From the NCBI GenBank assembly GCA_963750205.1, contig CAVVRJ010000016.1, forward strand, positions 163,400 to 227,399: 64,000 nucleotides of DNA. Reading direction: 5' to 3'. The notes below the pieces were generated by a model. It had not been told where the DNA came from and searched no databases. It was given only the letters and a program-made list of their open reading frames with translations. The stretch is from an uncultured Planctomycetota bacterium. GTDB lineage: Bacteria > Planctomycetota > Phycisphaerae > Sedimentisphaerales > Anaerobacaceae. This document shows positions 4,113 to 33,910 of the stretch, one piece after another (the stretch's first letter is position 1; the number at the start of each line of letters is the position of its first letter). The position numbers were made by a program, and so were the translations under genes.

Positions 4113-4141
4113 GGCCGACCATCCTTTCCGAATTCATCGAT

Positions 4142-5454: not shown

Positions 5455-5563
5455 GTTCGCTGACGGATTATAGCACCAAATCCTGCCAAATGAGCAATTT
5501 CCTTAGTTTGTTCGCGTCCCGAGCATATCAGATGTTGCAATTATGTGACTTTCCGCTATAATA

Positions 5564-6190
5564 ATGATGGAGTCTGCGGGTGCGATCCGCGTGGGAGTGT
5601 GTATCTCCCACTTGGCAGGCGGGGGTTGCTTTTGGTTGGGGCAACCGGTAGTGACAGAGGTTCAAGGAAATGCAAGGCCGGGCAGCGACGTGGTTGAAGC
5701 TGCGGCCGGGATTTTCGCCGAATACGGCGGTTTCATCCGTGCTGTCGTTGGTTTTCAGGCCCACAACAAGTCCGAGGAAGAGGATATCTTCCAAGCGTTC
5801 TTCCTCACCCTGATTCGTCGGCCCGTGCCGATAGACGTGCAGAACATCAAGAGCTATCTCTACCAGGCAATCACCAACCACATTCGAGATTTCGTGCGGC
5901 GACGAGCGAGGTACTGCGCCGCGGTGAAAAAATATGCGAGAGAAATCAGAATTCCCATCAACAATTGCCCGGCGGAAAACGTCTTAATAGAGGATACGGA
6001 GGAGAAAAACGCGATCATTGTCTCCTTCGCCCGGCACTTGCAGCAGCGGCAGGCCCAGGCCTTCTTGTTGCGGTATCGGGATCATTTCAGCATTCGCGAG
6101 ATCGCGGTGAAAATGGGCGTGAAAGGAAGGACAGTCAGCCGGTACTTGTCGGACAGTATCCGGACGCTCCGTAAGGTGCTGGCCACTTGA
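5564..6190 (+). CDS. ECF-type RNA polymerase sigma-70 family factor
   Basis: Sigma region 2 (FQAFFLTLIRRPVPIDVQNIKSYLYQAITNHIRDFVRRR) and region 4 HTH (FLLRYRDHFSIREIAVKMGVKGRTVSRYLSDSIRTLRK). The true start is probably an internal or alternative codon downstream of 5564. Confidence 0.7.
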   Translation: MMESAGAIRVGVCISHLAGGGCFWLGQPVVTEVQGNARPGSDVVEAAAGIFAEYGGFIRAVVGFQAHNKSEEEDIFQAFFLTLIRRPVPIDVQNIKSYLYQAITNHIRDFVRRRARYCAAVKKYAREIRIPINNCPAENVLIEDTEEKNAIIVSFARHLQQRQAQAFLLRYRDHFSIREIAVKMGVKGRTVSRYLSDSIRTLRKVLAT

Positions 6191-6202
6191 TGAGGGACGT
6201 CA

Positions 6203-7777: not shown

Positions 7778-8276
7778 CGATTACGCTCCGCCCCTCCGAA
7801 CGGCCGAACGCTTGCGCGTAGCCGTCACAATGGATGTGGACCATGGCCTTGGAGGCCGCGTCAAATACGACCACGACCATACCGCAGCCGCCATCGCACA
7901 CCCATGGGAATCCCACGTCCTTGTGCCCCTGACGAGGAGCAAAATGCAGTAGCGCTCGATCCCCTCCCATGCGATCCCAGCGGCCCCCCGAGCGAACACG
8001 AGGCCTTCCCAAGACTTCAACGGCCGATTTTATCGGACCCGCACCGAGATATCCTCTTCCTTCCTCTGGAATCACGTCACGGAGGGACGGAAGACGTCTG
8101 GCGCGGCTGGAAATCGTCGCAATGATTATCGGCCCAAGTGAAGAAAGGTTGCAGCCTTCTGCGCCCCAACCCGGTTTCGCCTTGACCAGCTTAAGGCAAT
8201 GACCCCACGTAGGCTTCTCGATGCACGTATGGGCCGGCGCGAAGAACACACACGCTTCACAGAGTTGCTGGCTCAT
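7716..8276 (-). CDS. hypothetical Cys/His-rich small protein (doubtful)
   Basis: The ORF sits in a lower-GC intergenic stretch. The N-terminus MSQQLCEACVFFAPAHTCIEKPTWGHCLKL is Cys/His rich, and there is no recognisable family. Confidence 0.15.
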   Translation of the reverse strand: MSQQLCEACVFFAPAHTCIEKPTWGHCLKLVKAKPGWGAEGCNLSSLGPIIIATISSRARRLPSLRDVIPEEGRGYLGAGPIKSAVEVLGRPRVRSGGRWDRMGGDRALLHFAPRQGHKDVGFPWVCDGGCGMVVVVFDAASKAMVHIHCDGYAQAFGRSEGRSVIVTGPETSSQSPDPFPVRWDM

Positions 8277-8497
8277 CCCGGTCAGTCTCCTACTCGAATT
8301 CTACGCTTGAACGCCAAGTTTCCGTTCGTCAACGACACCGGGTTTCCCGGTTCTGGCTGCGAATCTTCCCTTTCTTTTAGTAAGGCGATTCTCGACGCCT
8401 CACTGTTGATAGAGAAATGGAGCAAGCCTCAAGCAAATCCTCCAGGCGGTCGATGAAAGAGGACGCGGAGACCAAGAAGGGTTTCGATTCTTAACGA

Positions 8498-9238
8498 GTG
8501 TCCCTGGGCATCGGGGTGGATATGGGGCTCAAGACTTTGTACGCGAGAAGCGTGGTCACCACCACGACCCTCCGCGATTTCGAGATCGAGGGGGCCGCCG
8601 AAGTGGGCGAATGCACCGGGGCGCAGTCCTTTCGCGCCACCCGTCAGCGTGACGCCCAGCCGGTCCTGCTGCACAAGTTCCGGCCGGCCGAGTCTCTGCT
8701 CGAATTGGGACCGCTGGTCACCCATGAAGAGCCGCCCGATTTCACGAAGTCGTTCGTCACTCACTTCACTGACCTGTTCGTCGTCGCCGGCAGCGCCTAC
8801 CTGGTCGAGCCGCTGCCGCCCTGCTTTGCCTTGCGCGATCTGTGGCGGTACGTGCTGCAGAAGCGGCCCGACCAGGCGTATACCGTGATCGCCCTGGTGA
8901 TGCGCCAACTGCTTGCCATTCTCCGGCGGCTCACACGGCAGAGCCGCTACCACGGCGCCTTGAGCCTCGGGAACATCGTGCTGGCGCCGACGGCCCGTTT
9001 CGGCATCCTGGCCGGGCATCTGGCCTGCCAGGACGGCCGGCTCTGGCTCCGCAAAGACCCCGCAAGCCCTGTAGAGCCTGACTCTCATGCTCTCGCCGAC
9101 CTCTTGGGCACACTGCTCGACATCGAGGCCGAGGTCGCCACTCTCCAGAACGTGCCCACGCTCCTGCCCGCGGAGGCTCGCCACCGGATTCACGAGCTGC
9201 GGCGGGCCGTCCTGCAGGCCACGGCACAGACGATATAG
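8498..9238 (+). CDS. hypothetical protein with degenerate protein-kinase-like fold (pseudokinase-like)
   Basis: Diverse amino-acid composition, unlike the Arg/Gly-rich antisense ORF 8429..9331. Weak kinase-like landmarks: FEIEGAAEVGECTGAQSF (Gly-loop-like), VLLHKF, and VMRQLLAILRRL...YHGALSLGNIVLA (catalytic-loop-like with HRD replaced). Confidence 0.4.
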   Translation: MSLGIGVDMGLKTLYARSVVTTTTLRDFEIEGAAEVGECTGAQSFRATRQRDAQPVLLHKFRPAESLLELGPLVTHEEPPDFTKSFVTHFTDLFVVAGSAYLVEPLPPCFALRDLWRYVLQKRPDQAYTVIALVMRQLLAILRRLTRQSRYHGALSLGNIVLAPTARFGILAGHLACQDGRLWLRKDPASPVEPDSHALADLLGTLLDIEAEVATLQNVPTLLPAEARHRIHELRRAVLQATAQTI

Positions 9239-9457
9239 AATCACCAGCGACGCTCTTCGAACGACGGCCTTCCAAGGCAGCCCCAGGCCCAATTGGTCAG
9301 GCGGAATTCCCGACGAAGCTCTTTGAGCCAACGGGCCTGGACGTTACAATGGGCCTTTCGGCGCCGGAATCGAGGAAGCACGGTCAAACGAGTTTGGCTG
9401 TGCCACCCGTTTCGAGATGGACTGGCGCGGACGGGGTCTTGTACCACAGGATAGGAC

Positions 9458-10643
9458 ATGAAGACTTACGAACAGATCAACGATCGGATCGAGTCGGGCA
9501 AGGCCGTCGTGCTAACCGCCGACGAGATCATGGATTACGTCGATAAGAAGGGCGTGGCGGCGGCCGCGAAGGAGGTGGACGTGGTCACGACCGCCACCTT
9601 CGGGCCGATGTGCTCGTCAGGCTGCTTCCTGAACTTCGGGCACTCCAAGCCGCGGATTCGCATGTCGGAGGCGTGGGTCGAGGACGTCCTCGTCTACGCG
9701 GGCGTCGCGGCGGTGGACGTCTACCTCGGGGCGACGCAACTACGCCACGCCGACCCGGCGAACATGTACTATCCGGGCGAGTTCCGCTACGGCGGCGGCC
9801 ACGTCATCGAGGACCTCGTCGCGGGCAAGACGCTCCAGCTCTTTGCCCTCTCCTACGGGACGGACGAGTACCCGCGCCGCGAGATCCGCACGTACTTCAC
9901 GATCCAGGACCTCAACCAGGCGATCATGGTCAACCCGCGGAACTGCTACCAGAACTACAACGTGGCGATCAACGACTCGGACCGGACGATCTACACGTAT
10001 CTGGGCATCCTGGAGCCCCGCCGCAAGAACGCGACCTACTGCTCCGCCGGCCAGTTGTCGCCGCTGCTTGAACGATCCCTACTACGAGACCATCGGCGTG
10101 GGGACGCGCGTCTGGCTGGCGGGGGCCCAGGGGCACGTCTACGCCGAGGGGACCCAGCACGCCGGCGACTGCGAGCGGACCCCCAACGGCGTGCCGAAGG
10201 AAGGGGCGGGGACCTTGGCCCTGACCGCCGACATGAAGCAGATGCGGCCCGAGTTCGTCCGGGGCGTGAGCCTGCGCGGCTACGGCGTGTCGCTGGCCCT
10301 GGGCGTCGGCGTGCCCATCCCGATTCTCAATGAGCAGGTCCTCCAGCGCACCTGCATCCGGGACCGGGATATCCTCGCGCCCGTGACCGACTATAGCCAC
10401 GACTATCCCGAGAAGACCGGCCGGGTGATCCGCTACGCCAATTATGAGGAGCTGCGCAGCGGCCAGATCGACGTCGAGGGCAAGAAAGTCGAGGTCGGCT
10501 CGATGTCGTCCTACTACAAGGCCCTGGAGATCGCCAACCTGCTGGCCGACGAGATTCGCCGGGGCGATTTTCTGGTGAGCCGGCCGATCGCTCCGCTGCC
10601 CCGCAATACGAAAATGAAACCGTTGGTGATCAGAGAGAAGTGA
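9458..10643 (+). CDS. homocysteine biosynthesis protein, COG1900/DUF39 (L-aspartate-semialdehyde sulfurtransferase-like); one apparent frameshift near 10070
   Basis: N-terminus MKTYEQINDRIESGKAVVLTADEIMDYV...TATFGPMCSSGCFLNFGH in ORF 9458..10333 continues as NDPYYETIGVGTRVWLAGAQGHVY... in ORF 9843..10643. It is followed by a NIL-ferredoxin gene, which is the typical partner. Confidence 0.65.
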
Positions 10644-10658
10644 GAAGTCTCAGGCATG

Positions 10659-10734
10659 CCATTGCGAGCGAAGCGAAGCAATCTCCCCTGCCGAGGATTG
10701 AGATTGCTTCGTCGCTGCGTCCTCGCAATGACAT
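10659..10734. repeat. ~76-nt imperfect palindromic element (family GGATTGAGATTGCTTCGTCGCTGCGTCCTCGCAATGACAT)
   Basis: ccattgcgagcgaagcgaagcaatctc ...loop... gagattgcttcgtcgctgcgtcctcgcaatgacat. Lies 16 nt after the COG1900 gene stop. The right arm recurs at 1..35 and 47666..47727. Confidence 0.65.
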
Positions 10735-10737
10735 TCC

Positions 10738-11181
10738 TTGGACCCCTTTGGGAAACCTGATATGAGTCCGACCGTAACGAAGAAACTGATGCTTTTCTTC
10801 CCGAAATGCGAGTGTGAGAAACCGATCATTTATCACCTGGTGAAGGACCACAACCTCATCGTGAACGTCTACCGGGCGAGGGTGACGCCGGAGGAAGAGG
10901 GCTACCTGGTTCTGGACGTGACGGGAACGGAGCAGGACATCGAGGGGGCGATGGACTTCGTGCGGACCTTCAACGTCACGATCAACACCACCGGCAAAGG
11001 CGTGACGTGGGACGAGCATCGCTGCACGCATTGCGGCCAGTGCCTCCCCCGCTGCCCGACCGAGGCCCTGCACTTCGCCGACGCGGGCACGCGCCGGGTG
11101 GTCTTCGACGAAGCGGAATGCATCGAGTGCCTGGCGTGCATCCGGGTCTGCCCCTTCAGCGCCTGCGCCTCGGCCTTTTGA
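10738..11181 (+). CDS. NIL-domain / 2x[4Fe-4S] ferredoxin partner of COG1900
   Basis: The N-terminal NIL-like domain is followed by CTHCGQCLPRCP and CIECLACIRVCP cysteine clusters. Confidence 0.65.
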   Translation: MDPFGKPDMSPTVTKKLMLFFPKCECEKPIIYHLVKDHNLIVNVYRARVTPEEEGYLVLDVTGTEQDIEGAMDFVRTFNVTINTTGKGVTWDEHRCTHCGQCLPRCPTEALHFADAGTRRVVFDEAECIECLACIRVCPFSACASAF

Positions 11182-11323
11182 TCCGGACCTGTCATGCGTG
11201 TGTCTTGTCATCCCTTCGGCAAGCTCGGGGCAGGCTCTGAACGGAGCGAAGCGCAGGGAAGGATCTGGCACGCGTATTTAAAACTCCTCCCATTCGCCGG
11301 CCAGATCCTTCGCTGCGCTCAGG

Positions 11324-22110: not shown

Positions 22111-22821
22111 TTGCCCCAGGAGGGTCAATCGCTGGAGGTTTGTACCATGCTTTCGGTTCGTGAGGCCGCAGAAGTACTGGGAATTTCCCAGAAGACCGTC
22201 TATCGCTGGATTCAAGACGGCCGGTTGCCGTCCCACCGTCTGGGGGGACAGCACTTCCTGGAACGGTCCGAGGTGAACAACCTGGTGATCCGGGAAGGGC
22301 TGCGTCCCCTGCCCGACACGGCGGACCAGACGGAGGACAACGAGGACATTTCCCTGCACGACATGCTCGTCAAGGGCGGGGTTTTCTATCGGATTAGTGG
22401 CTCGACCAAGAAAGATATCCTGCAAAATGCCCTGAACATGGTCAAGGGGGTGGATGAGAGCGTCTCGGGCCCCCTGTTCCAGATGTTCGTCGCGCGGGAG
22501 GAGCTGGCTTCCACGGGTATCGGGGACCACATCGCGATCCCCCACGCCCGGGGGTCGCTGGTCGGCTACATCAGCCAGCCGATTCTCTCGTTGTCATTCC
22601 TGGAGACGCCGATCGACTACGGCGCCCTGGATGGCAAGCCCGTATACGCCCTGTTCCTGCTGGTGTCACCCAACGTCCGCACACACCTGCGCATTCTGGC
22701 GCAGTTGTCGTTCTGTCTGCACGATCCGGAATTCAAGCAAGCGGTCTTAAGCCAAGCCTCACGGGAGGCGATTCTAAGTACTCTCGCGCAGACGGAAGCC
22801 CGTCTGCGCCGAGATTCATGA
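22111..22821 (+). CDS. HTH (excisionase/MerR-like) - PTS EIIA type-2 (EIIA-Ntr/PtsN-like) fusion regulator
   Basis: N-terminus LSVREAAEVLGISQKTVYRWIQDGRLPSHRLGGQHF (HTH_17). The C-terminal EIIA-2 domain carries the phospho-His motif GDHIAIPHARG. RBS GGAGG at 22134; likely start ATG at 22147. Stop overlaps the next start (ATGA). Confidence 0.7.
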   Translation: MPQEGQSLEVCTMLSVREAAEVLGISQKTVYRWIQDGRLPSHRLGGQHFLERSEVNNLVIREGLRPLPDTADQTEDNEDISLHDMLVKGGVFYRISGSTKKDILQNALNMVKGVDESVSGPLFQMFVAREELASTGIGDHIAIPHARGSLVGYISQPILSLSFLETPIDYGALDGKPVYALFLLVSPNVRTHLRILAQLSFCLHDPEFKQAVLSQASREAILSTLAQTEARLRRDS

Positions 22822-24845
22822 AAGACCGCGGCATGGAAGTATTCATCCTGGGTTGCCTCATTCCGATTGTGCTGGGCGCCGGCGTTCTTGGCATCGGTCG
22901 TTCCAAGGCCGCCCCGTGGATCGCTGCCTTCGGCGTTTGGCTGGGCTGTGGGATCGTGGCGGTCCCAGTCATCGCGGCGTTCGCTGGGAGTGTCCCGGCG
23001 CCGCTGCGGGCCGCCTGGAACGTTCCCGGCGGATCGCTCACCTTCGCACTGGACGGGCTTTCGGCTTTCTTCTGCCTGCCGATTCTGGTCGTGTCACCGC
23101 TGGCGGCGCTCTACGGCTGCCAATACCTGGCTCACGAGAAGAAGCCTCTGGGGCCGGCGTCGCTCTTTTATAACGTGCTGACAGCCAGCATGCTCCTGCT
23201 CCTGGTCGCCCGCAATGGCCTGCTGTTTCTGGTCATTTGGGAGGTCATGGCGATCAGCTCGTTCTTCCTTGTCGTTTTCGACGATGAGCACGCCCACGTG
23301 CGTCAGGCGGGCTGGACCTACCTGATCGCCGCTCACGTTGGGACAGGGGCCCTGCTGGTGATGTTCGCTCTCTTGGGCGGGCAGGCGCACTCGCTGGATT
23401 TCGATCTGATGGCGAAGGCCGCCTTGTCCCCCACGATGGCCACCATCCTCTTCATCCTGGCCGTGATCGGGTTCGGCACAAAGGCCGGCTTCATCCCGCT
23501 GCACGTTTGGCTGCCGGAAGCGCATCCGGCCGCTCCGAGCCATGTCTCGGCGCTGATGTCCGGTGTGATGATCAAAACAGGCATCTATGGCCTGTTACGC
23601 ATCGTGACGATGCTGGGCCACCCCTCGGCGGCCTGGGGTTGGACGCTGGTAATTATCGGACTGGTCTCGGGCATCCTCGGCGTGGCCTTTGCCCTGGCCC
23701 AGCACGACCTCAAGCGGCTCTTAGCCTATCATAGCGTCGAGAACATCGGCATCATTGCCTTGGGCATTGGTGCAGGTCTCCTGGGAATCAGTTGGAACCA
23801 GCCTGCGCTGGCGGTGCTCGGCTTCGGAGGCGGCATCCTCCACGTGCTCAATCACGCGGTCTTCAAGAGCCTGCTCTTCCTCGGGGCGGGCGCGGTGGTC
23901 CACAGCACCGGCACGCGGGACATCGACCACCTCGGCGGCCTGATCAAGTCGATGCGCTGGACCGCCGTAACGTTCGTCATTGCCTCTGCGGCCATCTCCG
24001 GATTGCCCCCGTTCAACGGATTCATCAGCGAGTTCCTCATCTACGTCGCCGCTTTCACCGGCGTGCAGGCCGGAGCCGCCGGGACAGTAATCCTGGCCAT
24101 CGTGATCGGGGCCGGCCTGGCAATGATCGGCGGTCTGGCCGCGGCCTGCTTCGCCAAAGCGTTCGGCATCGTCTTCCTCGGCGAGCCGCGCAGCTCGCAT
24201 GCGACCCACGCCGAGGAGGTAGGAGCTGCGATGCGATGGCCCATGGCCGTACTCGCCGCGGCCTGCCTCGGCATTGGCCTGTTCGCCCCGGCCGTGGTGA
24301 AGATCGTTCTCCCCGCGGTCCGCGTCGTTTGTAGTGTGCCCCTAAGGGCATTTGAAGAAACGCCTGACGGCGTCACTACGGACGCGCCTGTGGCAACGGC
24401 CCTGGGGAGCTTGACCAGTATCGTGCATGTATCTGCTGCGTTGCTCTTGCTGGCGCTTGGGCTCCTGCTCGTCCGCCGCTATCTGCCGCGTGGCAAAGAG
24501 GAGACGGCCACGGGAACCTGGGACTGCGGCTACGCCCGGCCGACGCCGCGCATGCAATACACCGCCTCGTCCTTCGCACAACCCCTGACAGATCTGTTCC
24601 AGATCTTCCTGGGGACGCGCAAGCACGGCGCTGCCCTGAGCGGCTTCTTTCCGCCGCGGACGACGTTCGAGACCCACACACCGGATGCGGCCCGCGAGTA
24701 TCTGTTCGCCCCGCTGTTCAAGCTGATCGACCGGGCACTGTCCCCGATCCGCCGGATGCAGCATGGACGCATTCACGAGTACCTGCTCTATATTGCCCTG
24801 GTCCTGATACTGCTGCTCATCTGGAAGGCGGGAGGGCGATCATGA
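22818..24845 (+). CDS. NuoL/HyfB-like proton-translocating antiporter-type membrane subunit (EhrA/HyfB-like)
   Basis: A 675-aa polytopic protein with MrpA/NuoL signatures (GWTYLIAAHVGTGALLV..., HSVENIGIIALGIG). Confidence 0.7.
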   Translation: MKDRGMEVFILGCLIPIVLGAGVLGIGRSKAAPWIAAFGVWLGCGIVAVPVIAAFAGSVPAPLRAAWNVPGGSLTFALDGLSAFFCLPILVVSPLAALYGCQYLAHEKKPLGPASLFYNVLTASMLLLLVARNGLLFLVIWEVMAISSFFLVVFDDEHAHVRQAGWTYLIAAHVGTGALLVMFALLGGQAHSLDFDLMAKAALSPTMATILFILAVIGFGTKAGFIPLHVWLPEAHPAAPSHVSALMSGVMIKTGIYGLLRIVTMLGHPSAAWGWTLVIIGLVSGILGVAFALAQHDLKRLLAYHSVENIGIIALGIGAGLLGISWNQPALAVLGFGGGILHVLNHAVFKSLLFLGAGAVVHSTGTRDIDHLGGLIKSMRWTAVTFVIASAAISGLPPFNGFISEFLIYVAAFTGVQAGAAGTVILAIVIGAGLAMIGGLAAACFAKAFGIVFLGEPRSSHATHAEEVGAAMRWPMAVLAAACLGIGLFAPAVVKIVLPAVRVVCSVPLRAFEETPDGVTTDAPVATALGSLTSIVHVSAALLLLALGLLLVRRYLPRGKEETATGTWDCGYARPTPRMQYTASSFAQPLTDLFQIFLGTRKHGAALSGFFPPRTTFETHTPDAAREYLFAPLFKLIDRALSPIRRMQHGRIHEYLLYIALVLILLLIWKAGGRS

Positions 24846-25756
24846 ACGCGATGCGCTGGGCACTGCCGTTGACCGCCTGGGTTCTCGCGCCCCTGATGCT
24901 CGGCGATCATCAACCGGGTGAAGTCGTTCTTCGCCGGCCGCCGTGGCCCTTCCGTGTGGCAGCTCTACTACGATCTCTTCAAGCTGCTGCAAAAGGGCTC
25001 AGTCTACAGCCGCTCGACGAGCACCGTGATTCGCCTCGGCCCGTCGGTGGTGCTGGCGTGCATGGTCCTGGGCACAACGATGCTGCCCTGGGGCGAATTG
25101 CAGGCTCCTGTGACGTTCCTCGGGGACATCATTCTGTTGGCCTATCTCCTGGGCCTGGCCCGTTTCGTCACCGTGCTGTCGGCCCTCGACACGGGATCGA
25201 GCTTCGAGGGCATGGGCGCCAGCCGCGAGGTCCAATTCGCGGCCTTGGCCGAGCCGTCGTTCTTCCTGGGGATGCTGGTCCTGGTGCTCCATTTCGGGTT
25301 CTCGGGCCTGTCGAAAATGGTCTCGGAGATCTCGTTCGAGACCTGGCAGACCTCCGGCGTGCTCCTGATTCTGGTCGGCTGCTCCTGGTTCGTCCTGCTG
25401 CTGACGGAGAACTCGCGCATCCCGGTTGACGATCCCAACACGCACCTGGAGCTGACGATGATCCACGAGGTCATGGTGCTCGACTACGGCGGGCCGGACC
25501 TCGCGTTCATCCTGTACGCCGCATCGTTGAAAATGTGGATCTTCGCCGCCCTGGTCGTGAATCTCGTGGTCCCCATGCACTCCCTGACGCCCTGGCTGCA
25601 GCGCCGATCTTCCTGCTGGGCATGGTCTTCGTCATGGCCCTGGTGGGCGTCGTGGAGTCCATCTTGGCCCGGCTGCGACTGAACCAGATTCCGAAAATCC
25701 TGATCGGCTCGGCGCTGCTGAGCTTGGTCGCCTTGATCGTTCGTTTGATGGGTTAG
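24842..25756 (+). CDS. NuoH/HycD-like membrane subunit (two apparent frameshifts)
   Basis: KSFFAGRRGPSVWQLYYDLFKLLQKGSVYS matches the HycD/HyfC N-terminal signature. Frames 24842, 24918..25682 and 25535..25756 are colinear. Confidence 0.6.
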
Positions 25757-25762
25757 CCAACG

Positions 25763-26437
25763 ATGACTGTTATTTCCGTCCTGCTCATCCTCTCGTGTCT
25801 ATGGCTGCTGGCGTCCAGCCGCCTGCACGTCGCGATCCGCGTGGTGGCGATCCAGGGCGTGCTGCTGGGCGTGCTTCCGATCGTCCGGTCGATGGGGGAC
25901 ATCGGCCTGGGCGTCGGGCTTCTGGGGCTGACCACGATCATCTCCAAGAGCATCCTGCTGCCGTGGCTGATGAATACGTGTTTGCGGCTTTCGGGGCTGC
26001 GGCGGGAGATCGAGCCCTTCATCGGTTTTGGCCCTTCGCTGCTCTGCGGCACGGCCCTGCTCGGGCTGGCCGTCTGGATCACCGACCGCCTGCAACTGAC
26101 CCAGGCCCAGGCCCCGCTCGTCCTGCTGACCAGTTCCTTCTTCGCGATGCTCGTGGGCCTCTTTCTCATGGTCACCCGACGCAAGGCCATCACCCAATCC
26201 CTGGCCTACTTGGTCATGGAAAACGGCGTTTACGGCGTCGGCGTCAGCCTGAGCCTGGACTTCCCGTTCATCGTGGAGCTCGGCATCCTGCTGGACGTCT
26301 TTGTGGGCGTGTTCCTCATGGGCAACCTCCTGTTCCATCTGGATCGAGAGTTCGAGCATCTCGACACGGATAAGATGACCGAGTTGTCCGATCTCTCGAA
26401 GCCGGCCGCGGCGGCACCGCTGGAGGAGAAGGCATGA
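25763..26437 (+). CDS. HyfE-like small membrane subunit
   Basis: A 224-aa polytopic protein in an operon position equivalent to HyfE. Confidence 0.5.
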   Translation: MTVISVLLILSCLWLLASSRLHVAIRVVAIQGVLLGVLPIVRSMGDIGLGVGLLGLTTIISKSILLPWLMNTCLRLSGLRREIEPFIGFGPSLLCGTALLGLAVWITDRLQLTQAQAPLVLLTSSFFAMLVGLFLMVTRRKAITQSLAYLVMENGVYGVGVSLSLDFPFIVELGILLDVFVGVFLMGNLLFHLDREFEHLDTDKMTELSDLSKPAAAAPLEEKA

Positions 26438-27901
26438 TGCTTCTGCTGCTGACGATCCTGCTGCCGGCAGCCGCAGGGACGGCCTCGTATTTCATTCGCC
26501 CCCACCATTGGCGGCGTTTTCTTTGGGGGGCTGTCGCCGCGGCGCATTTCACGCTGGCCGTCACGGCGGCGCTGACGATCACCGCCCCGCCGCTGGACCA
26601 TTGGATCGGCATGGATGCGCTCAGCGCGATCTTTCTCGTGTTGACGAGTCTGCTTTTCCTGGGGGCCACCGTGTACGGGATCGGCTACGTGGCCCGCGAG
26701 CCCGTGGCCGGGCAGACGGACTCCGAAGACGGCAGCCTCTTCAAGAACGAGCCCGAATCCGTCTTCACCGGCGCCCTGCTCCTGCTGCTGGCCGCCATGA
26801 CGCTGGCCATCCTGAGCCGGCATCTGGCCCTGCAGTGGGTGGCGATCGAAGCCACGACACTGGCCAGCGCCCCGCTGATCTACTATCACCAGAACCGCCG
26901 GTCGCTGGAGGCCGCCTGGAAGTACCTGATGCTGTGCTCGGTCGGCATCGCCATCGCCCTGCTGGGGATCTTTTTCCTCCGCATGACGATCCAGGACGGT
27001 CCTCACGACCTGACCCTGACCGCCCTGCTGGAGCGGGCCGGCACGCTGAACCACAAGTGGCTCGGCACGGCCTTCATCTGCATGCTGGTCGGCTACGGCA
27101 CCAAGATGGGCTTGGCCCCGCTGCACACGTGGCTGCCCGACGCCCATAGCGAAGCGCCGTCGCCGGTCTCGGCGCTGCTCTCCGGGGCCCTGCTCAATTG
27201 CGCTTTTCTCGGTATCCTTCGCGTGCAACAGGTTTGTGCGGCGGCGGGCATGGCCTCCTTCGGCGGCGACCTGCTGATCCTGTTCGGCCTGCTGTCGATG
27301 GGACTGGCCGGCGGCGTTCATCCTCCGCCAAACCGACTACAAACGCATGCTGGCGTACTCCAGCGTGGAGCACATGGGCATTCTGGCGCTGGGTGTCGGC
27401 CTGGGCGGGCTGGGGCTCTTCGGCTCGTTCCTGCACGCGGTCAATCATTCCGTCGTCAAGGCGATGCTGTTCTTCACGGCGGGCAACATCCTGTCCCGCT
27501 TCCATACCAAGGACACGACGAAGATTCAGGGAGCGTGTGACGCCCTGCCGATTTCCGGGGCCTTGTGGATCGCGGGATTCCTGGCCGTGACGGGATCGCC
27601 TCCCTTCGGGACATTCATCAGCGAGTTTACGATCTTGCGGGCGACCCTCGACCAGGGCCGGTGGGTGATCGCCGTGCTTTACGTGCTGTTTCTGCTGCTG
27701 GCGTTCGCCGGGATGTCGGGGATCGTGCTGCGGATGGCGCTGGGCAAATCCGAGGTGAACCGGGTCCGCGAGCCGGTCACGGCGGTCCTGCCGCCCATCG
27801 TCTTGGCGGTGCTGGCGCTGCTGCTGGGCGTGTATCTGCCCGGCCCGCTGGCGGACCGGCTGCACGAGGCCGCCCAACTGCTGGGAGGGATGGCGAAATG
27901 A
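26434..27901 (+). CDS. NuoN/HyfF-like antiporter-type membrane subunit (one apparent frameshift near 27320)
   Basis: ORF 26434..27540 (WLPDAHSEAPSPVSALLSGALLNCAF) continues in ORF 27347..27901 (MLAYSSVEHMGILALG...HAVNHSVVKAMLFFTAG). Confidence 0.6.
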
Positions 27902-29414
27902 TCACACTGCCGCAACTCCATAACGGCCAGGCCCTGCCTTTGAAGGACATTCCGGAACTCGCCGTGCCGGACTTTCGCGGCCTGATTCTGGAGCGGGTCC
28001 GCCGGGGCAGGCGGATTTCGTCGCTCTTCGGCATGCCGGACGGCGACCAGATCATGATTCTGGCGGTGCTGGCCCATGACAGCCAGGGCATGCTGGAACT
28101 GTGCCGCACGCGGGTCCGCGACCGGTATCCGGCCCTGACCCCCGATGTCCCCCAGGCCCACTGGTTCGAGCGGGAAATCGCCGAGCAGTGGGGCATCGTG
28201 CCGGAGGGACACCCGTGGCTCAAGCCCATCCGGTTCCACACTTCCTATGTCCCGAATCGCGATGCGTGGAGCCGGGACAAGGCGATGCCGATCGAGCCGT
28301 GGCGTCACCAACTACTTCCGCGTCGAGGGCGAGGAGATTCACGAGGTCGCGGTCGGTCCCGTGCACGCCGGCATCATCGAGCCGGGCCATTTCCGCTTCC
28401 AATGCCACGGCGAGAACGTCCTGCACCTGGAGATCGAGCTCGGCTACCAGCACCGGGGCATCGAGCGGGCCCTGGTCGGCGGCCCCGGCCCGCGCACGAT
28501 CCACTACATGGAGACGCTGGCCGGCGACACCACGATCGGGCACGCCACGGCCTACGCTTCGATCCTGGAGGCCCTCGGCGATGTGACGCCTTCGCCGCGG
28601 GCCCAGGCGATTCGCGCCATCGCGCTGGAACTGGAGCGACTGGCGAACCACACCGGCGATCTGGGCGCTCTTGGCCGGCGACATCGGGTTTCTGCCCACC
28701 GCCTCCTACTGCGGCCGGTTGCGGGGCGATTTTCTCAATATCACCGCCCTGCTGTGCGGCAATCGCTTCGGCCGCAACCTCATCCGTCCCGGCGGCGTGC
28801 GGTTCGATCCGACGCCGCAAACCGCGGACGATCTCTTGACCCGCCTGCAGACGACCTTCGAGTCCGTGCAGAACGCCGTGGATTTGCTGTGGGAGACGCC
28901 GTCGGTCATGTCGCGATTCGACGGGACCGGGACCGTTTCCCGGCAGGATGCCGCCCGGCTCGGCCTCGTCGGACCGGCGGCCCGCGCCGCCGGCGTCGAG
29001 CGTGATGTCCGCAGCGACCTGCCCTGGGGCATCTACCAGTCGCACGAGTTGCCCTCGGTCACGCTGCAAACGGGCGATGTCGCCGCCCGGGCGTACGTGC
29101 GCTGGTTCGAGATGCAAAAGTCCGTCGAGTTCATCAGCGACGTGACCCGCGCCTTGCCGGCGGGACCCGTTTTGCAGGAGGTCCCCCCGCCGGCGCAAGA
29201 GCATCTGGCGGTCGCTCTGGTGGAAGGGTGGCGGGGAGAAATCTGCCACGTTGCCGTGACCAACGAGCACGGCCGGCTGCGGCATTACAAAGTTACGGAT
29301 CCGTCGTTCCACAACTGGTTCGGATTGGCGCTGGCCCTCCGCCGCCAGCAGATCTCCGATTTCCCGTTGTGCAACAAGAGCTTCAACCTGTCCTATTGTG
29401 GACATGATCTGTAG
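27898..29414 (+). CDS. group-4 [NiFe]-hydrogenase large-subunit-like / NuoCD-like catalytic subunit, apparently lacking the N-terminal Ni-ligating CxxC (two apparent frameshifts)
   Basis: Three colinear frames (27898.., 28145..29005, 28671..29414). Motifs: GPVHAGIIEPGHFRFQCHGENVLHLEIELGYQHRGIE (GPxHP...GYxHRGxEK). Where HycE/EchE have ERxCGxCxxAHSTAY this protein has ETLAGDTTIGHATAY. The C-terminus FPLCNKSFNLSYCGHDL does not match DPCxxCxxR. Confidence 0.6.
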
Positions 29415-29417
29415 AAA

Positions 29418-29495
29418 GAATGGAATATTGGAAAGCTGAAAACGTTGGGATGACAGGGCGACCTGCCCAGTATTCCATGATTCCACTATTCCCTT
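29418..29495. promoter_or_regulatory. intergenic inverted array of TGGAAT (x2) ... ATTCCA (x3) hexamers between the large-subunit-like gene and the Fd/small-subunit gene
   Basis: agaaTGGAATATTGGAAag...cagTATTCCATgATTCCActATTCCC within an AT-rich 110-nt gap. Confidence 0.45.
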
Positions 29496-29523: not shown

Positions 29524-30564
29524 ATGTTGAGAATACTGCGGGCCAGGCTCAAACAGGGGTACCGCACGATCCGGTTTCCGGACCAGCCGCCGGTCCTGCC
29601 GGAGCAGTACCGGGGCCGGCCCCAGTGGGACGCCGGCAAGTGCACGGGCGACTGCACGGCCTGTGTTCAGGCCTGCCCTACCGGAGCCCTGAGCAAATCG
29701 AACGGTGCCGTGACCATCGACTTGGGCCGGTGCCTGTTCTGCACGGATTGCACGGACGCCTGCCCGACCCAGGCCATCCAGTTCACCGCGGAGTATCGTC
29801 TGGCGACCCGCACCCGCGAGGCGTTGCTCGTGGACCATCGTCCTTACGCACTGGCCCAGGCCTTGGACGAGAAAGCCCGCAAGCTCTTCGGCCGCTCGCT
29901 CAAGCTGCGTCAAGTCAGTGCCGGCGGCTGCAACGCCTGCGAAGCGGACACCAACGTGCTCAACACCGTCGGATTCGATCTGGGCCGCTTCGGCATCCAG
30001 TTCGTGGCTTCGCCGCGCCATGCGGACGGTCTCCTCGTAACCGGCCCGGTCCCGAAGAACATGGAGCTGGCCCTCAAAAAGACCTACGATGCCACGCCCG
30101 CCCCCCGGCTCGTGATTGTGGTCGGCGCCTGTGCGATTTCGGGCGGCGTCTTCGCCGGCCATCCGGAAGTGAACAACGGGGCCACGTCGATCGTCCCCGT
30201 GGACCTCTTCATCCCCGGCTGCCCACCCCACCCCATCACCATCCTCGACGGCCTGCTCCGCCTGCTCGGCCGGATTGAATGGACGTCGCCAACAACCCGC
30301 GTTTGTAGCGTAGCCCAGTACATGGGCATGTCAAGAAACGCATGGAACGGACAGTCACTGCAAGACACCTGCGTTTCGAAATGTCATCTTGCTGTGGTCT
30401 GCCTCGGTGAATTTGCCGTAATAGAACTCGGCTTTCAGGCCCAGATGAGAAAGAAGGCGATCGAATACCGCCGCGATCCGGTCCATATCTACACCCGGGC
30501 GATCTCGGAGCTCCGATGCGGGTCCGTCAGAAAGCCGGGAATCTTCTCCGCGAGCAGCCGGTAG
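29524..30564 (+). CDS. fused 2x[4Fe-4S] ferredoxin (HycF-like) + NuoB/hydrogenase-small-subunit-like (HycG-like) protein
   Basis: CTGDCTACVQACP and CLFCTDCTDACP clusters, then GGCNACEAD...VGACAISGG...IPGCPP (NuoB/HycG N2-cluster cysteines). The last 90 aa or so are non-homologous and overlap a convergent gene, so the true stop is probably near 30290. Confidence 0.6.
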   Translation: MLRILRARLKQGYRTIRFPDQPPVLPEQYRGRPQWDAGKCTGDCTACVQACPTGALSKSNGAVTIDLGRCLFCTDCTDACPTQAIQFTAEYRLATRTREALLVDHRPYALAQALDEKARKLFGRSLKLRQVSAGGCNACEADTNVLNTVGFDLGRFGIQFVASPRHADGLLVTGPVPKNMELALKKTYDATPAPRLVIVVGACAISGGVFAGHPEVNNGATSIVPVDLFIPGCPPHPITILDGLLRLLGRIEWTSPTTRVCSVAQYMGMSRNAWNGQSLQDTCVSKCHLAVVCLGEFAVIELGFQAQMRKKAIEYRRDPVHIYTRAISELRCGSVRKPGIFSASSR

Positions 30565-31172: not shown

Positions 31173-32828
31173 TCAGTTCCACCGATTTGACTGCCGCCGG
31201 CTTGGTCTCGGCGATTTCGTGGTCAGGAGTTGCTCCAGCTCTTCGAGGCTGATCCCCAGCTTGCCCAGTAGCGGCTTGAGGTCGATGCCCTGGACCTTCA
31301 GGGCCGACAGGAACTTGAAGACGGTGTTGGGCACGATCGAGCTGAACTGGTCGAGTCCCCGGCCGTTGCCGCCCATGTCGATGATTCGCACCTCGTCGAT
31401 CTGGCCCAGCGGCGCCGCCACGCTCGAGAAGACCGAAGTCGCGACCTTGCTCATCGCATCGCCGCCGCGATCGAGCAGCAAGGGCAGCCGGTCGAGGATC
31501 AGGATCATCTTCGCGTCGGCCGACATCTTGGCCAGCGCCTCGGCGAGTTGCTTGGTGCCCTCGGCCTCCGCCTTGAGGACCATGCCCTTCTTGGCGGCCT
31601 CGCCTTCGGCCTGGGCCACCAGGGCCTGCTTGGTCTTGGCCGCTTCGCCTTCCGCCTGGGCGAGCATCACGGCCTTGGTCTTCGAGGCCTCGCCTTCGCC
31701 TTCGTAGACGCGGGCTTGTCTCTCGCCTTCCGCCCGGCGGATCGCGGCTTCCTTGGCCGCCTCGGCGTTGGTCACCGCCACCATCTTCGCGGCCTCCGCG
31801 TCGATCACTTGCTTGGACCGGTTGGCCTGGGCCAGCTTGACCACCGTGGCATCGAGCTCCTGCTCCTTGCGGGCGGCCTCTTTGCACTGGACCTCGATCT
31901 GGGCCTCCTTCTCCGCGGCGTCGCGCTCGGCCTGGCGAACCTTGAGCGTCTTTTCCTGCTCGGCCAGGGCAATGCCAAACGCCTGCTCGGCTTTGGCTCT
32001 TTCCGTGTCGGCGATAGCTTTGAACTGAGCCCTTTTCACGTCCCGGTCCCGCTCGGCCTGGGCCACTTGCACCGCGTTGCTGGCGACCTGGATATCCGCC
32101 TCGCGCGTGGCGTCGCTGACCTTCTTCTTGGTCTCCGCCTCGGCTTGGGCCGTCTTGATGTTGGCGTCCCGGATGGCCTCGGCGACCGACTGCTTGCCGA
32201 GGGCGTCAATGTAGTGAAACTCGTCCGTCACTTCCTGGATCACCAGCGTGATGATCTGGATGCCGAGCCGCCGGAGCTCTTCCGTGGATTCCTCGACCAC
32301 CTTCTTGTTGAAGGCATCCCGGTCCCGCAGAATCTCACTGATGTTCAGCTTGCCGATGATCGACCGCAAATGGCCCTGGAGGATGTTCCGGACGATCCGC
32401 GCCAGCTCGTCCTCGGTCTTGCCGAGGAAGGCGGCGGCCGCATTGTGGAGCGATTCCTGCGTCGTCTCGATCTTGTACGTCGCCACGCCCCGGGCGCTGA
32501 TCTTCACGTTGTCCTTGTTCGGGATGTCGTGCTCGTCGATCTCGACCTGGGAGACGCCCGTGGACATCGGCTGAAAATGCTCGACGATCGGCCACAGCAG
32601 CGCGCCGCCCCCGGCGACGACCCGGAAGCCCCGGTGCTGCATCTTCCCCTCGGCGTCCAGGTACTTGTACTTGCGGCCATAGAAGATGCCCACCTGGTTG
32701 GGCGGGATCTTCTTGTAGCGGCTGGCCATCGCCCAGACGACCACGATAAAGGCCACCGCGATCAGAAGGATCATCCCCGCGATCAACACGGAGCCACTCG
32801 TTTCGGCTATCAGCGGCAATGCGTTCAT
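31173..32828 (-). CDS. flotillin / SPFH (band-7) domain protein (YqiK/FloT-like)
   Basis: N-terminal TM segment, SPFH domain (QVGIFYGRKYK...) and a long Ala/Glu/Lys-rich coiled-coil. Confidence 0.8.
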   Translation of the reverse strand: MNALPLIAETSGSVLIAGMILLIAVAFIVVVWAMASRYKKIPPNQVGIFYGRKYKYLDAEGKMQHRGFRVVAGGGALLWPIVEHFQPMSTGVSQVEIDEHDIPNKDNVKISARGVATYKIETTQESLHNAAAAFLGKTEDELARIVRNILQGHLRSIIGKLNISEILRDRDAFNKKVVEESTEELRRLGIQIITLVIQEVTDEFHYIDALGKQSVAEAIRDANIKTAQAEAETKKKVSDATREADIQVASNAVQVAQAERDRDVKRAQFKAIADTERAKAEQAFGIALAEQEKTLKVRQAERDAAEKEAQIEVQCKEAARKEQELDATVVKLAQANRSKQVIDAEAAKMVAVTNAEAAKEAAIRRAEGERQARVYEGEGEASKTKAVMLAQAEGEAAKTKQALVAQAEGEAAKKGMVLKAEAEGTKQLAEALAKMSADAKMILILDRLPLLLDRGGDAMSKVATSVFSSVAAPLGQIDEVRIIDMGGNGRGLDQFSSIVPNTVFKFLSALKVQGIDLKPLLGKLGISLEELEQLLTTKSPRPSRRQSNRWN

Positions 32829-32984
32829 GCTTGTCTCTCCTATGCAGATTCTCGTTTATCGTCCCAAGGTGCGCGGCTCGTCTCATTGGTTCGGCGTTCC
32901 GCGTTTACGCGGGTCGGACCGGTCTTTCCCGCCTGAAGGCGGAACTCCGAACGAGCGTCGCAACCGCCCTCGCTCCACGATTAT

Positions 32985-33587
32985 TCAGCCTTGGCCGGCA
33001 TCGACCGTGAGGACCGAGCCCGACACATCGACGATCCGCACGGCATGCCCTTTGCACGCCGTGTTCGGGCCTTGCAGGCGCGCCGGGTACGTGCGGTATT
33101 CGCCCCCGACACTGACGCCGATCTCGCCGACGCTGTCCCGATTGATCGGCACGGTCACGGTGCCCGTGCAGCCAAGGAGAGCGTCGGCGGCAATGACGGA
33201 GTTGGCCTGTTGCTCGGTGAACAACAGGATAATACCGTACATGAGGGTGGCCAGCACGATGCCGGCCGCCACGCCGATGAGGGAAGCGAGGGGGTAGCCG
33301 GTGCCGTAGAACTGCGCGATGGCTCCCGCCGCTCCGAATCCCATGATGAAGGTGAAAATCACCTTCGTCGAGAAAATGCCGACGATCCCATGCGTGTCCG
33401 GACCGGCCTCATGGCTGAAGTCGTGGTCGAAATCGCCGCCGAGATCGTGGTCATGGCCGAACAGGAACGCCCCGGCTATCACGATGAACGCCGCCAGTGC
33501 TATCGCCACAAAGATAGTCATAGCCGTCTCCTTTCGTAGCACGGGTACGAGATCCCCAGCGCGACCTATCGCGTTTGGGAACTCCAT
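32985..33587 (-). CDS. NfeD-like (YqiJ-like) membrane protein
   Basis: Likely start MTIFVAIALAAFIVIAG near 33521. TM helices plus a C-terminal OB-fold (GTVTVPINRDSVGEIGVSVGGEYRTYPA...AVRIVDVSGSVLTVD). Lies immediately upstream of the flotillin gene. Confidence 0.65.
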   Translation of the reverse strand: MEFPNAIGRAGDLVPVLRKETAMTIFVAIALAAFIVIAGAFLFGHDHDLGGDFDHDFSHEAGPDTHGIVGIFSTKVIFTFIMGFGAAGAIAQFYGTGYPLASLIGVAAGIVLATLMYGIILLFTEQQANSVIAADALLGCTGTVTVPINRDSVGEIGVSVGGEYRTYPARLQGPNTACKGHAVRIVDVSGSVLTVDAGQG

Positions 33588-33814
33588 CTTGCCCGTGGTT
33601 GAGAATCCATGAGCGAGACGCCCATGCTACTTAGATAGACGCGGACACCGGTCCCGTACTTCATTCGAATTGTCGAGAAATATACCCATTTTCCCGAAGC
33701 CTGTCTACCGCCGTCCGGGTCCTTTTTTGTCTCGACTTGTCGCTCCCGACAGGGCACAATTACCATATGATCCGGGAAATCCGGGTAGCTTGGGCAATGA
33801 ACAGAATCGGAGTG

Positions 33815-33910
33815 CTGGAATAATGGAATACTGGAACGATGGAATGCTGGGATTCCTGGCTCTTCACCCATTATTCCAAGATTCCAATGTTCCATTATTC
33901 CAATTCCTTA
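33815..33910. promoter_or_regulatory. divergent-promoter region containing 5x TGGAAT (8-10-nt period) followed by 5x ATTCCA, a large imperfect palindrome of the same hexamer as at 29418
   Basis: ctGGAATaaTGGAATacTGGAAcgaTGGAATgcTGGGAttcctgg...ccATTATTCCAagATTCCAatgTTCCATTATTCCAATTCC. Lies between the NfeD-like (-) and ydcF-like (+) genes. Confidence 0.45.

Follow-up and report, generated by a model that had tools for sequence, protein, structure and literature searches.

A large subunit without NiFe ligands in an uncultured Planctomycetota bacterium, very probably part of an Ehr complex

INTRODUCTION

The complexes called Ehr (Ech- or energy-converting-hydrogenase-related) are hydrogenase-like complexes that lack the NiFe ligands and are encoded by genes in the order ehrABCDLS (PMC7894505, PMC6688271, PMC10284858, PMC6349859). 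They are related to the group 4 (4f) hydrogenases, carry no CxxC motifs, and have no known function (PMC10284858, PMC6349859). According to later papers that cite the original work (PMC7894505, PMC6688271, PMC4758237), their first description came from Geobacter sulfurreducens (Coppi 2005; Marreiros et al. 2013). Here, we analyzed a gene that very probably encodes the large subunit of such a complex (EhrL), together with its operon, in a 64,000-nucleotide stretch of DNA from an uncultured Planctomycetota bacterium (assembly GCA_963750205.1, contig CAVVRJ010000016.1, positions 163,400 to 227,399; hereafter, the window).

In G. sulfurreducens, every Ehr subunit has been detected by proteomics, with a higher abundance on formate than under hydrogen-containing conditions (PMC7894505), and a 2026 paper labels the complex of this species non-functional (PMC13194489). 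The HydDB database leaves Ehr out as non-H2-metabolising (PMC5037454). The Rv0081-87 locus of Mycobacterium tuberculosis is described as EHR-type, in a species where NiFe maturation genes are reportedly absent (PMC6728331), and a role in pH homeostasis has been suggested for the ehrABCDLS cluster of Methylacidiphilum (PMC6688271). The hyqRBCEFGI operon of Azorhizobium caulinodans has the same gene order and a 504-amino-acid (aa) large subunit; on the basis of deletion genetics, it was reported to encode a bidirectional H2:quinone "endo-hydrogenase" (PMC2650096, PMC3357923), although its authors call any catalytic site in HyqG speculative (PMC3357923). A preliminary description of the window, made from the sequence alone, had stated that the reaction of Ehr complexes is unknown. 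This is largely right, with the reservation that H2:quinone activity has been claimed on genetic grounds for the distant Hyq (PMC2650096, PMC3357923).

RESULTS

The four NiFe ligands of EhrL are replaced

Two orthologous loci were used for comparison. The first (L001) is a Joint Genome Institute metagenome contig with 95% DNA identity, which encodes an intact 504-aa protein (P0001) 97% identical to EhrL; the second (L002) is 84% identical and encodes intact proteins. The features of the gene in the window are the following:

27898 to 29414, forward strand: EhrL large subunit, with a NuoC-like N-terminal domain and a NuoD/HycE-like domain (Pfam Complex1_30kDa and Complex1_49kDa)
28300, forward strand: extra T; the alignment with L001 reads GCCGTGGCG versus GCCG-GGCG, and its deletion restores PIEPGVTNYF, which matches the family consensus
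28511 to 28555, forward strand: former L1 NiFe motif ETLAGDTTIGHATAY, with Ala208 and Thr211 at the positions of HycE C241 and C244, and Asp210 specific to the cysteine-less clade
28670, forward strand: extra C; the alignment with L001 reads GCTCTTGG versus GCT-TTGG, and its deletion restores GDLGALAGDIGFL
29358 to 29411 (stop codon to 29414), forward strand: C-terminal tail DFPLCNKSFNLSYCGHDL, with Ser498 and Gly501 at the positions of HycE C531 and C534, and Leu504 at that of the Arg

After deletion of the extra bases at 28300 and 28670, the gene consists of 504 codons plus the stop codon and aligns without gaps to both orthologues. The phmmer comparison of the frameshift-corrected protein with the Protein Data Bank (PDB) sequences gave Escherichia coli HycE as the top match (7z0s_E, E = 3e-49; the numbering of this chain is shifted by 12 relative to native HycE), far ahead of MBS, the membrane-bound sulfane reductase (6u8y_L, 1e-18). 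In the HycE alignment, "drvCgiCgfaHstay" is paired with "etlAgdTtigHatay" of EhrL and "sldpCy" with "fnlSy". In native numbering, HycE C241 corresponds to Ala208 (28520-22), C244 to Thr211 (28529-31), and C531 to Ser498 (29391-93). The extended phmmer alignment and the MAFFT family alignment described below place HycE C534 at Gly501 (29400-02) and the Arg of DPCxxCxxR at the final Leu504. All four NiFe-ligand positions are therefore substituted (4/4), and the loss of both Ni-ligating L1 cysteines, already noticed in the preliminary description, is borne out.

The group 4 L1 motif RxCGxCxxxH is not matched in EhrL, which reads ETLAGDTTIGH and keeps only the Gly and the His. Likewise, the L2 motif (D)PCxxCxx(H/R) is not matched by NLSYCGHDL; the Cys of this segment (C500) is one position out of register with L2 and is Ser or Ala in 38 of the 85 representatives considered below. 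The protein ends at the residue aligned with the maturation-cleavage Arg of HycE and has no C-terminal extension. The cysteines of corrected EhrL are, in full, 69, 169, 271, 286, 449, 491, and 500: none lies near the L1 position and none falls between residues 170 and 270 of the 504-aa protein. We thus rejected the possibility, raised in the preliminary description, that the CxxC pair is displaced by a few residues or masked by the frameshifts, as the corrected protein is gap-free against its orthologues and this segment is free of Cys.

EhrL is homologous to the large subunits of group 4 [NiFe] hydrogenases and to NuoD, on the basis of its Pfam domains, the HycE match (3e-49), and the fold (TM 0.77, see below). 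The curated NuoD models score far under their cut-offs (NF004739, 182 versus 360 bits; TIGR01962, 136 versus 459). A further argument of the preliminary description, that GHATAY is hydrogenase-like rather than NuoD-like, proved weak, since Nqo4 also has H..AY at that position.

The frameshifts are assembly errors and the gene is intact

Compared with L001, the window has one additional base at each of the positions 27312, 28300 (T), 28670 (C), and ~30282, and the intact L002 proteins revealed by tblastn two more frame changes in the NuoH-like ehrB. In total, at least six frame changes are present across ehrB, ehrD, ehrL, and ehrS, in ~8 kb. Genes unrelated to the operon are interrupted in the same manner: by Pfam, a carboxylesterase gene (81-1705) is split between two overlapping open reading frames (ORFs), and so is an HcyBio gene (9458-10643), one ORF covering profile positions 1-211 and the following ORF 184-348. 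The scan of third-codon-position GC content (GC3) by phase showed numerous same-strand phase switches throughout the 64 kb. Since breaks of this kind also affect unrelated genes outside the operon, the frameshifts are errors of a low-accuracy assembly, window-wide, and not a sign of operon decay. The two frameshifts between which the preliminary description had placed the region are indeed present in the sequence as given, and they are no feature of this gene.

The region 53417-55003 offers a further example of splitting by single-base frameshifts. The window as a whole, whose source resembles a Sedimentisphaerales-like member of the Planctomycetota, looks like an unpolished long-read assembly, so ORF-based readings throughout it need caution, and frameshifts of this kind need polishing prior to annotation. 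Just 3' of the small-subunit gene, about a dozen single-base insertions compared with L001 are crowded unusually closely in the segment 30282-30364, as either a local burst of assembly errors or real intergenic divergence.

Corrected EhrL differs from its L001 counterpart by 72 synonymous and 12 non-synonymous substitutions, with a ratio of non-synonymous to synonymous rates (dN/dS) of 0.049; the dN/dS relative to L002 is 0.127. The substitutions at the ligand positions are not sequencing artefacts, because they are conserved under strong purifying selection; the earlier view that the ligand loss is real was correct. EhrL is an intact gene under selection, neither a NiFe hydrogenase nor a pseudogene.

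The replacement residues are conserved across a large clade

A word-indexed protein search retrieved 8000 candidates, all with E <= 1e-10, and the best 120 were examined as close homologues. These are 64-97% identical to EhrL and ~500-507 aa long. The replacement residues are kept in 120/120, with [AS]GD[TS]xxGH in essentially all of them, and 115/120 end in CNKSFNLSYCGHDL. The scan of the GTDB species-representative genomes gave at least 566 matching stretches, in Planctomycetota (with Sedimentisphaerales closest), Verrucomicrobiota, Cloacimonadota, Methylomirabilota, Desulfobacterota, Binatia, Hydrogenedentota, Lentisphaerota, Omnitrophota, and Acidobacteriota. An exhaustive HMMER search among 1.84 billion representatives at 50% identity returned 6644 matches, 978 of them at E <= 1e-30.

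The MAFFT family alignment included 86 full-length representatives, the window protein, P0001, HycE, and two plasmid-encoded homologues. The ~85 cysteine-less representatives read [ASC]-G-D-[ST] at L1 and S-Y-[CSA]-G at L2. Four others (P0238, P0243, P0250, and P0252) retain RxCGxCxxxH and CY(S/A)CxD(R/L), and the members of their clusters, from Ca. Wujingus and Desulfotomaculum, are named hydrogenase large subunit by NCBI. Judged from these alignments, the cysteine replacement goes far beyond chance, as the same residues recur in 120/120 close homologues and in ~85 diverse representatives.

A neighbor-joining (NJ) tree rooted on HycE, crude and lacking support values, groups the 85 cysteine-less proteins in a single clade whose sister group consists of the four 4-Cys proteins. 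The Hyq-type protein encoded on plasmid pRL11 of Rhizobium johnstonii 3841 falls inside the cysteine-less clade, apart from the 4-Cys proteins. On this rough tree, the cysteines appear to have been lost in one ancient event, after which purifying selection was strong.

The cysteine-less and the 4-Cys groups have the tail scaffold DFPLxNKSFxLxYxxxD in common. In particular, EhrL shares NKSF(N/E)L-x-Y-x-x-x-D-(L/R) with the nearest 4-Cys hydrogenases, which read NKSFELCYSCxDR. The C-terminus, previously described as non-canonical, does mismatch DPCxxCxxR (Ser/Gly/Leu), and yet it is not idiosyncratic: it is the ordinary scaffold of the family minus two cysteines.

Six positions are specific to the cysteine-less proteins (at least 90% conserved and different in hydrogenases), namely, D210, D467, P468, S498, G501, and L504. 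D210 is present in 79/85 cysteine-less representatives and is I, V, or A in the five hydrogenases (HycE and the four 4-Cys proteins); the corresponding counts are 79/85 for D467, 81/85 for S498, 84/85 for G501, and 79/85 for L504, with D503 in 85/85. Residues shared with hydrogenases are H156, E161, R166, H185, E189, D369, R371, D393, R397, and D503, and the proton-relay-type Glu of IIEPGHFR is kept in 77/85.

Four cysteines, C169, C286, C491, and C500 (window ~28404, 28757, 29370, and 29397), are invariant or nearly so among the close homologues. All four occur together in 27/85 representatives and none in 14/85; the pairwise Fisher p values for their co-occurrence go down to 1e-7 and are confounded by phylogeny. 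They co-occur in the sub-clade of the window protein. A new Cys-based metal site common to the whole family was rejected, as many representatives have other residues in place of C491 and C500; one confined to this sub-clade may exist.

Predicted structure

The AlphaFold2 model of P0001, built on a 22-sequence alignment, had a mean predicted local distance difference test score (pLDDT) of 81.6 and a predicted template modeling score (pTM) of 0.85. The best Foldseek match of this model was HycE (7z0s_E, template modeling score [TM] 0.77), followed by E. coli NuoCD (TM ~0.7), and no Ehr structure was found in the PDB copy searched.

The operon has the composition of an Ehr locus

The genes around ehrL, and one element in the spacer that is not part of the enzyme, are the following:

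22147 to 22821, forward strand: regulator with an excisionase/MerR-like helix-turn-helix (HTH_17) domain, a phosphotransferase system (PTS) EIIA-2 domain, and an IAIPH active-site His motif (Pfam PF12728, PF00359); the tblastn match of the L002 orthologue starts at 22147
22818 to 24845, forward strand: EhrA, HyfB-like antiporter-type membrane subunit of 675 aa (Pfam Proton_antipo_M)
24842 to 25756, forward strand: EhrB, HyfC/NuoH-like membrane subunit (Pfam NADHdh), with frameshifts at ~24900 and ~25605
25763 to 26437, forward strand: EhrC, HyfE-like membrane subunit of 224 aa (NCBIfam "hydrogenase 4 membrane subunit", 1e-19, under cut-off), collinear with L002
26434 to 27901, forward strand: EhrD, HyfF-like antiporter-type subunit (Pfam Proton_antipo_M over two ORFs), with an extra base at 27312 relative to L001
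29420 to 29492, no strand assigned: palindromic element of GGAATAnT units in the EhrL-EhrS spacer
29524 to 30283, forward strand: EhrS small subunit of 252 aa, a HycF/NuoI-like 2x[4Fe-4S] domain fused to a NuoB/HycG-like domain (Pfam Fer4 families, Oxidored_q6)

EhrA scores 634 bits with the NCBIfam model "hydrogenase 4 subunit B", slightly below the cut-off of 667, and its top PDB matches are HycC (7z0s_C) and MbhH. In our reading, WEVMA (Glu), GTKAG (Lys), and HAVFK (Lys) could be the charged residues of antiporter transmembrane helices 5, 7, and 12. The intact 304-aa EhrB orthologue of L002 maps by tblastn to frame 3 and then to frame 2, with the N-terminal 21 aa falling in an ORF that starts at 24842; for EhrD, the tblastn match switches from frame 1 to frame 2. 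The two halves of EhrS are matched by the NCBIfam models for NuoB and for "formate hydrogenlyase complex iron-sulfur subunit", and its TGA stop is destroyed by the extra G at ~30282 relative to L001. Each of its 12 iron-sulfur (FeS) cysteines (40, 44, 47, 51, 70, 73, 76, 80, 136, 139, 203, and 233) is at least 97% conserved among 62 orthologues, and those of the proximal [4Fe-4S] cluster (C136, C139, C203, and C233) reach 98-100%. Because all 12 are conserved, three clusters are kept in EhrS.

All genes of the R-B-C-E-F-G-I module stand in order in 51 of 81 related loci, and contig ends truncate most of the others. A homologue of the HTH-EIIA regulator lies directly 5' of the HyfB-like gene in 49 of the 54 loci with enough upstream sequence, and the ferredoxin-NuoB fusion of the small subunit was found in 75/75. 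Neighbor-ORF clustering over 80 loci showed no recurrent hyp, protease, formate dehydrogenase, or NuoEFG gene within ~10 kb; no sulfur-metabolism or partner-oxidoreductase gene is conserved beside the module in the related loci. No Hyp protein was found among the neighboring ORFs scanned in the window, whole genomes being outside this search. The regulator gene suggests that the complex may be controlled by PTS(Ntr)-type phosphorylation.

The four replaced ligands, the missing C-terminal extension, and an operon composition equal to the published ehrABCDLS/hyqRBCEFGI (PMC7894505, PMC6688271, PMC2650096) uphold the earlier assignment to Ehr: EhrL is almost certainly the large subunit of an Ehr (Hyq-like) complex, encoded by an operon in the order regulator-ehrA-B-C-D-L-S.

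Other observations on the neighborhood concern operon copies, adjacent genes, and repeats. A single replicon can accommodate at least two Ehr-type operons: plasmid 3 of Variovorax sp. PBL-E5 (NZ_LR594673.1, locus L084) carries two adjacent ones, at 3920-11204 and from 14616 onward. One of them, with 40% identity to the window protein, encodes a small subunit of the fused 4Fe-4S/NuoB type; the second opens with an annotated hyfB, and its small subunit is beyond the stretch examined. In 6-8 of the 80 loci, mostly from named Verrucomicrobiota (e.g., L018), a Rex-type redox-sensing repressor (recognized by eye) and a 150-aa protein adjoin the operon just 3' of the small-subunit gene. This arrangement may hint at a link with the NADH/NAD+ status, or it may reflect lineage-specific synteny. 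Directly 3' of the window operon, on the reverse strand (31173-33587), there is a Band 7/SPFH flotillin-like gene of 551 aa with a partner gene for a 200-aa membrane protein, NfeD-like by eye and with no Pfam match. The pair is syntenic with L003, a Planctomycetota metagenome-assembled genome with 84% DNA identity, and is not conserved beside ehr in other lineages.

The fold predicted for the spacer element at 29420-29492 is not significant (z = -1.1). A second GGAATAnT palindrome, at 33806-33902, forms a long hairpin (-44.7 kcal/mol, z = -5.7). These elements consist of tandem 8-nt units followed by inverted copies, with 8 pattern matches versus 2.1 expected by chance; the ehrL-ehrS spacer of L001 has more units, and that of L002 is only 10 nt long. 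The Rfam scan of the window returned zero families, hence none for these elements, which look like small repeats of the repetitive extragenic palindrome (REP) or miniature inverted-repeat transposable element (MITE) kind.

DISCUSSION

A possible mechanism and the points against it

The best overall explanation of the locus combines the Ehr identity with an electron wire to a non-NiFe acceptor and with ion pumping; we assign to it a probability of about 0.6. For the mechanism itself, in which electrons from a low-potential donor would run along the three-cluster wire to a non-NiFe acceptor site, coupled to ion translocation, we see roughly even odds. The donor, most plausibly ferredoxin, would dock on the HycF/NuoI-like domain of EhrS, and electrons would pass through the two [4Fe-4S] clusters to the NuoB-type proximal cluster. 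From there, they could reach an acceptor site at the EhrL/EhrS/EhrB interface, in the former NiFe pocket. This pocket would have been rebuilt as a polar and acidic one, with Asp210 and Asp467 gained, Glu161 retained, and the Cys changed to Ala, Thr, Ser, and Gly. The NuoH-like EhrB and the antiporter-like EhrA, EhrC, and EhrD could then translocate H+ or Na+, driven by turnover. In other words, Ehr would work like the Q and P modules of complex I, or like formate hydrogenlyase (FHL) or membrane-bound hydrogenase (MBH) minus the H2 chemistry.

The weakest step is the acceptor. A membrane (mena)quinone is the most economical guess, by comparison with complex I and the Hyq model, and it remains a tentative one, on balance doubtful.

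Several points weigh against this explanation. In Nqo4, the quinone head group is bound by His38 of the beta1-beta2 loop and by Tyr87 of MDYLH, and phmmer aligns the quinone-ligand His and the MDYLH Tyr of this protein (2fug_4) with Ile160 and Gly209 of EhrL. The NCBIfam NuoD scores, far below cut-off (182 versus 360 bits), also speak against a quinone. In the P0001 model, residues 134-183 and 485-504, which form the pocket elements, have pLDDT < 50, and because of this a metal or quinone cavity is not readable from it. A full pathway for quinone biosynthesis is reportedly missing from Riflemargulisbacteria with Ehr (PMC6349859). The deletion genetics of A. caulinodans credits the distant Hyq with both H2 uptake and H2 evolution (PMC2650096, PMC3357923).

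Alternative functions

MBS is a cysteine-depleted relative with a different chemistry, and sulfane or polysulfide reduction has been proposed for the MBS of Pyrococcus furiosus. By analogy, the acceptor of Ehr could be neither quinone nor proton, but, for example, sulfane or polysulfide near the proximal cluster, or a soluble partner encoded elsewhere. This would fit the absence of the quinone-binding Tyr and His from EhrL in the phmmer alignment, the presence of MBS (6u8y_L) among its PDB homologues, and the Ehr lineages in which a full quinone pathway is reportedly lacking (PMC6349859). We consider it unlikely, since the MBS match is much weaker than that of HycE (1e-18 versus 3e-49) and no conserved gene for sulfur metabolism or a partner oxidoreductase lies next to the module.

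The complex could also be mainly an ion transporter, in which the FeS chain acts as a redox sensor or gate of a Mrp-like H+/Na+ antiporter, with no net reduction at EhrL. In other bacteria, the EIIA(Ntr)-type domain family has links with the homeostasis of K+ and other ions, and the upstream regulator has a domain of this type. A function in pH or ion homeostasis would agree, moreover, with the Mrp/HyfB-like membrane arm, whose charged residues we read as intact, and with the suggestion made for the Methylacidiphilum ehrABCDLS cluster (PMC6688271). Nevertheless, 12 FeS cysteines, a whole NuoC-NuoD-NuoB-NuoI arm, and a distinct invariant pocket (D210, D467, S498, and G501), all kept by strong purifying selection, would seem to exceed the needs of a sensor, which makes this function improbable.

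We hold it similarly improbable that the NiFe pocket was rebuilt into a new redox-coupled site binding a different metal or substrate, with neither H2 nor classical quinone chemistry. This reading is proposed because D210 and D467 were gained (79/85) and because C169, C286, C491, and C500 co-occur in the sub-clade of the window protein. If it were true, a rebuilt site would stand beside the proximal [4Fe-4S] cluster in a complex of hundreds of bacterial species.

A slimmer chance is left to a complex that is still a hydrogenase, in which a cysteine-poor EhrL site or the proximal cluster interconverts H2 and H+, coupled to quinone. The hyqRBCEFGI operon, with the same order and a 504-aa large subunit, altered H2 recycling and evolution in vivo when deleted (PMC2650096, PMC3357923). 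The Hyq-type protein of R. johnstonii pRL11 likewise lacks the cysteines (SGDS ... SYSG) and groups in the same clade on the rough tree, and the proton-relay-type Glu of IIEPGHFR is kept in 77/85 representatives. On the other hand, the four metal ligands are gone, the C-terminal extension is missing, no hyp or protease genes lie near the 80 loci, and the rhizobial protein is just ~35% identical to EhrL. The HyqG catalytic site is speculative according to its own authors (PMC3357923), HydDB credits Ehr with no H2 metabolism (PMC5037454), and M. tuberculosis has an Ehr-type locus and yet reportedly no NiFe maturation genes (PMC6728331).

Finally, a decaying pseudogene operon, with the cysteine loss as part of its degeneration, could be imagined from the at least six frame changes over ehrB, ehrD, ehrL, and ehrS, and we rejected it as highly improbable, since the cysteine-less motifs go back to the ancestor of a huge conserved clade, dN/dS is 0.05, single-base deletions restore perfect collinearity with the orthologues, and the unrelated carboxylesterase and HcyBio genes are split alike by assembly error.

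Significance

Ehr, a widespread membrane complex derived from NiFe hydrogenases, is a very large and deeply conserved branch of the superfamily of complex I and group 4 hydrogenases. EhrL is a new member of a family known since 2005 whose reaction is unsolved, and the novelty resides in the chemistry of the family and not in this locus. Ehr complexes are sometimes written off as non-functional relics of hydrogenases; the window locus leaves the reaction unsolved and sharpens the question, as the cysteines appear to have been lost once, long ago, on the rough tree, while the three-cluster wire and the pump subunits are intact. D210, D467, P468, S498, G501, and L504 mark where the new chemistry could be sought. 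In metagenomic surveys, Ehr-type genes should not be counted as hydrogenases.

Comparison with known systems

By both sequence and fold, the top match among solved structures is the group 4a FHL/hydrogenase-4 system of E. coli (HycE/HyfG, HycG/HyfI, HycF/HyfH, and HyfBCEF). Common to it and the window locus are an N-terminal domain of NuoC type, the blocks IIEPGHFR and GYxHRGxE, and Hyf-like membrane subunits. Unlike HycE, EhrL lacks the four NiFe cysteines and the C-terminal maturation extension. The locus is also without the FdhF, HycB, HyfA, and HyfD partners and without nearby Hyp/HycI genes, and the counterparts of HycF and HycG are fused in the window.

Complex I (NuoCD/Nqo4, with NuoB, NuoI, NuoH, and NuoL/M/N) has the same fold (TM ~0.7) and no NiFe site, and follows the same module logic of an FeS wire, an interface pocket, and antiporter-like pumps. 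EhrL differs from it in having Ile and Gly at the positions of the quinone His and Tyr and in its sub-cut-off NuoD scores, and the Ehr locus has neither the N-module nor the NuoA/J/K set.

The nearest 4-Cys relatives (P0238, P0243, P0250, and P0252) have the same DFPL-x-NKSF-x-L-x-Y-x-x-x-D tail at ~36-39% identity and form the sister group in the NJ tree. They differ in carrying V/A and S at the D210 and D467 positions and in keeping the NiFe-cysteine motifs. They are probably group 4f hydrogenases, which are described as the closest to Ehr (PMC10284858).

The Hyq system of A. caulinodans has a seven-gene operon in the same R-B-C-E-F-G-I order and a 504-aa NuoC::NuoD-type large subunit. As its proxy, we used the pRL11 operon of R. 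johnstonii 3841, named orthologous by Ng et al. 2009. The large subunit of pRL11 is cysteine-less as well (SGDS ... NCSYSGHDL), although it shares only ~35% identity with the window protein. In the rhizobial operon, the small subunit has 177 aa, is of the NuoB-only kind, and carries no ferredoxin domain, whereas that of the window is a 252-aa fusion; its regulator, an HTH protein of 98 aa, lacks EIIA, in contrast with the HTH_17 and EIIA domains of the window regulator. By its fused small subunit and HTH-EIIA regulator, the window clade is thus a distinct Ehr subtype. Hyq differs, in addition, in belonging to the NifA regulon of aerobic diazotrophs and in its claimed H2 turnover.

The Rv0082-Rv0087 genes of M. 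tuberculosis presumably have a subunit set and sizes similar to those of the window operon, with a small subunit that we take to be encoded first and not fused. They answer to another regulator. By description, they encode an EHR-type complex of unknown function ("hyc", DosR/Rv0081-regulated; PMC6728331).

Geobacter Ehr, also compared by description, has the same six structural genes in the same order (NuoL/HyfB-, HycD-, HyfE-, and HyfF-like, large, and small) and the same large subunit without NiFe-binding cysteines, of unknown function. In the window clade, a 2x[4Fe-4S] HycF-like domain is joined to the small subunit and an HTH-EIIA gene lies upstream of the operon, two traits that may set it apart from Geobacter Ehr.

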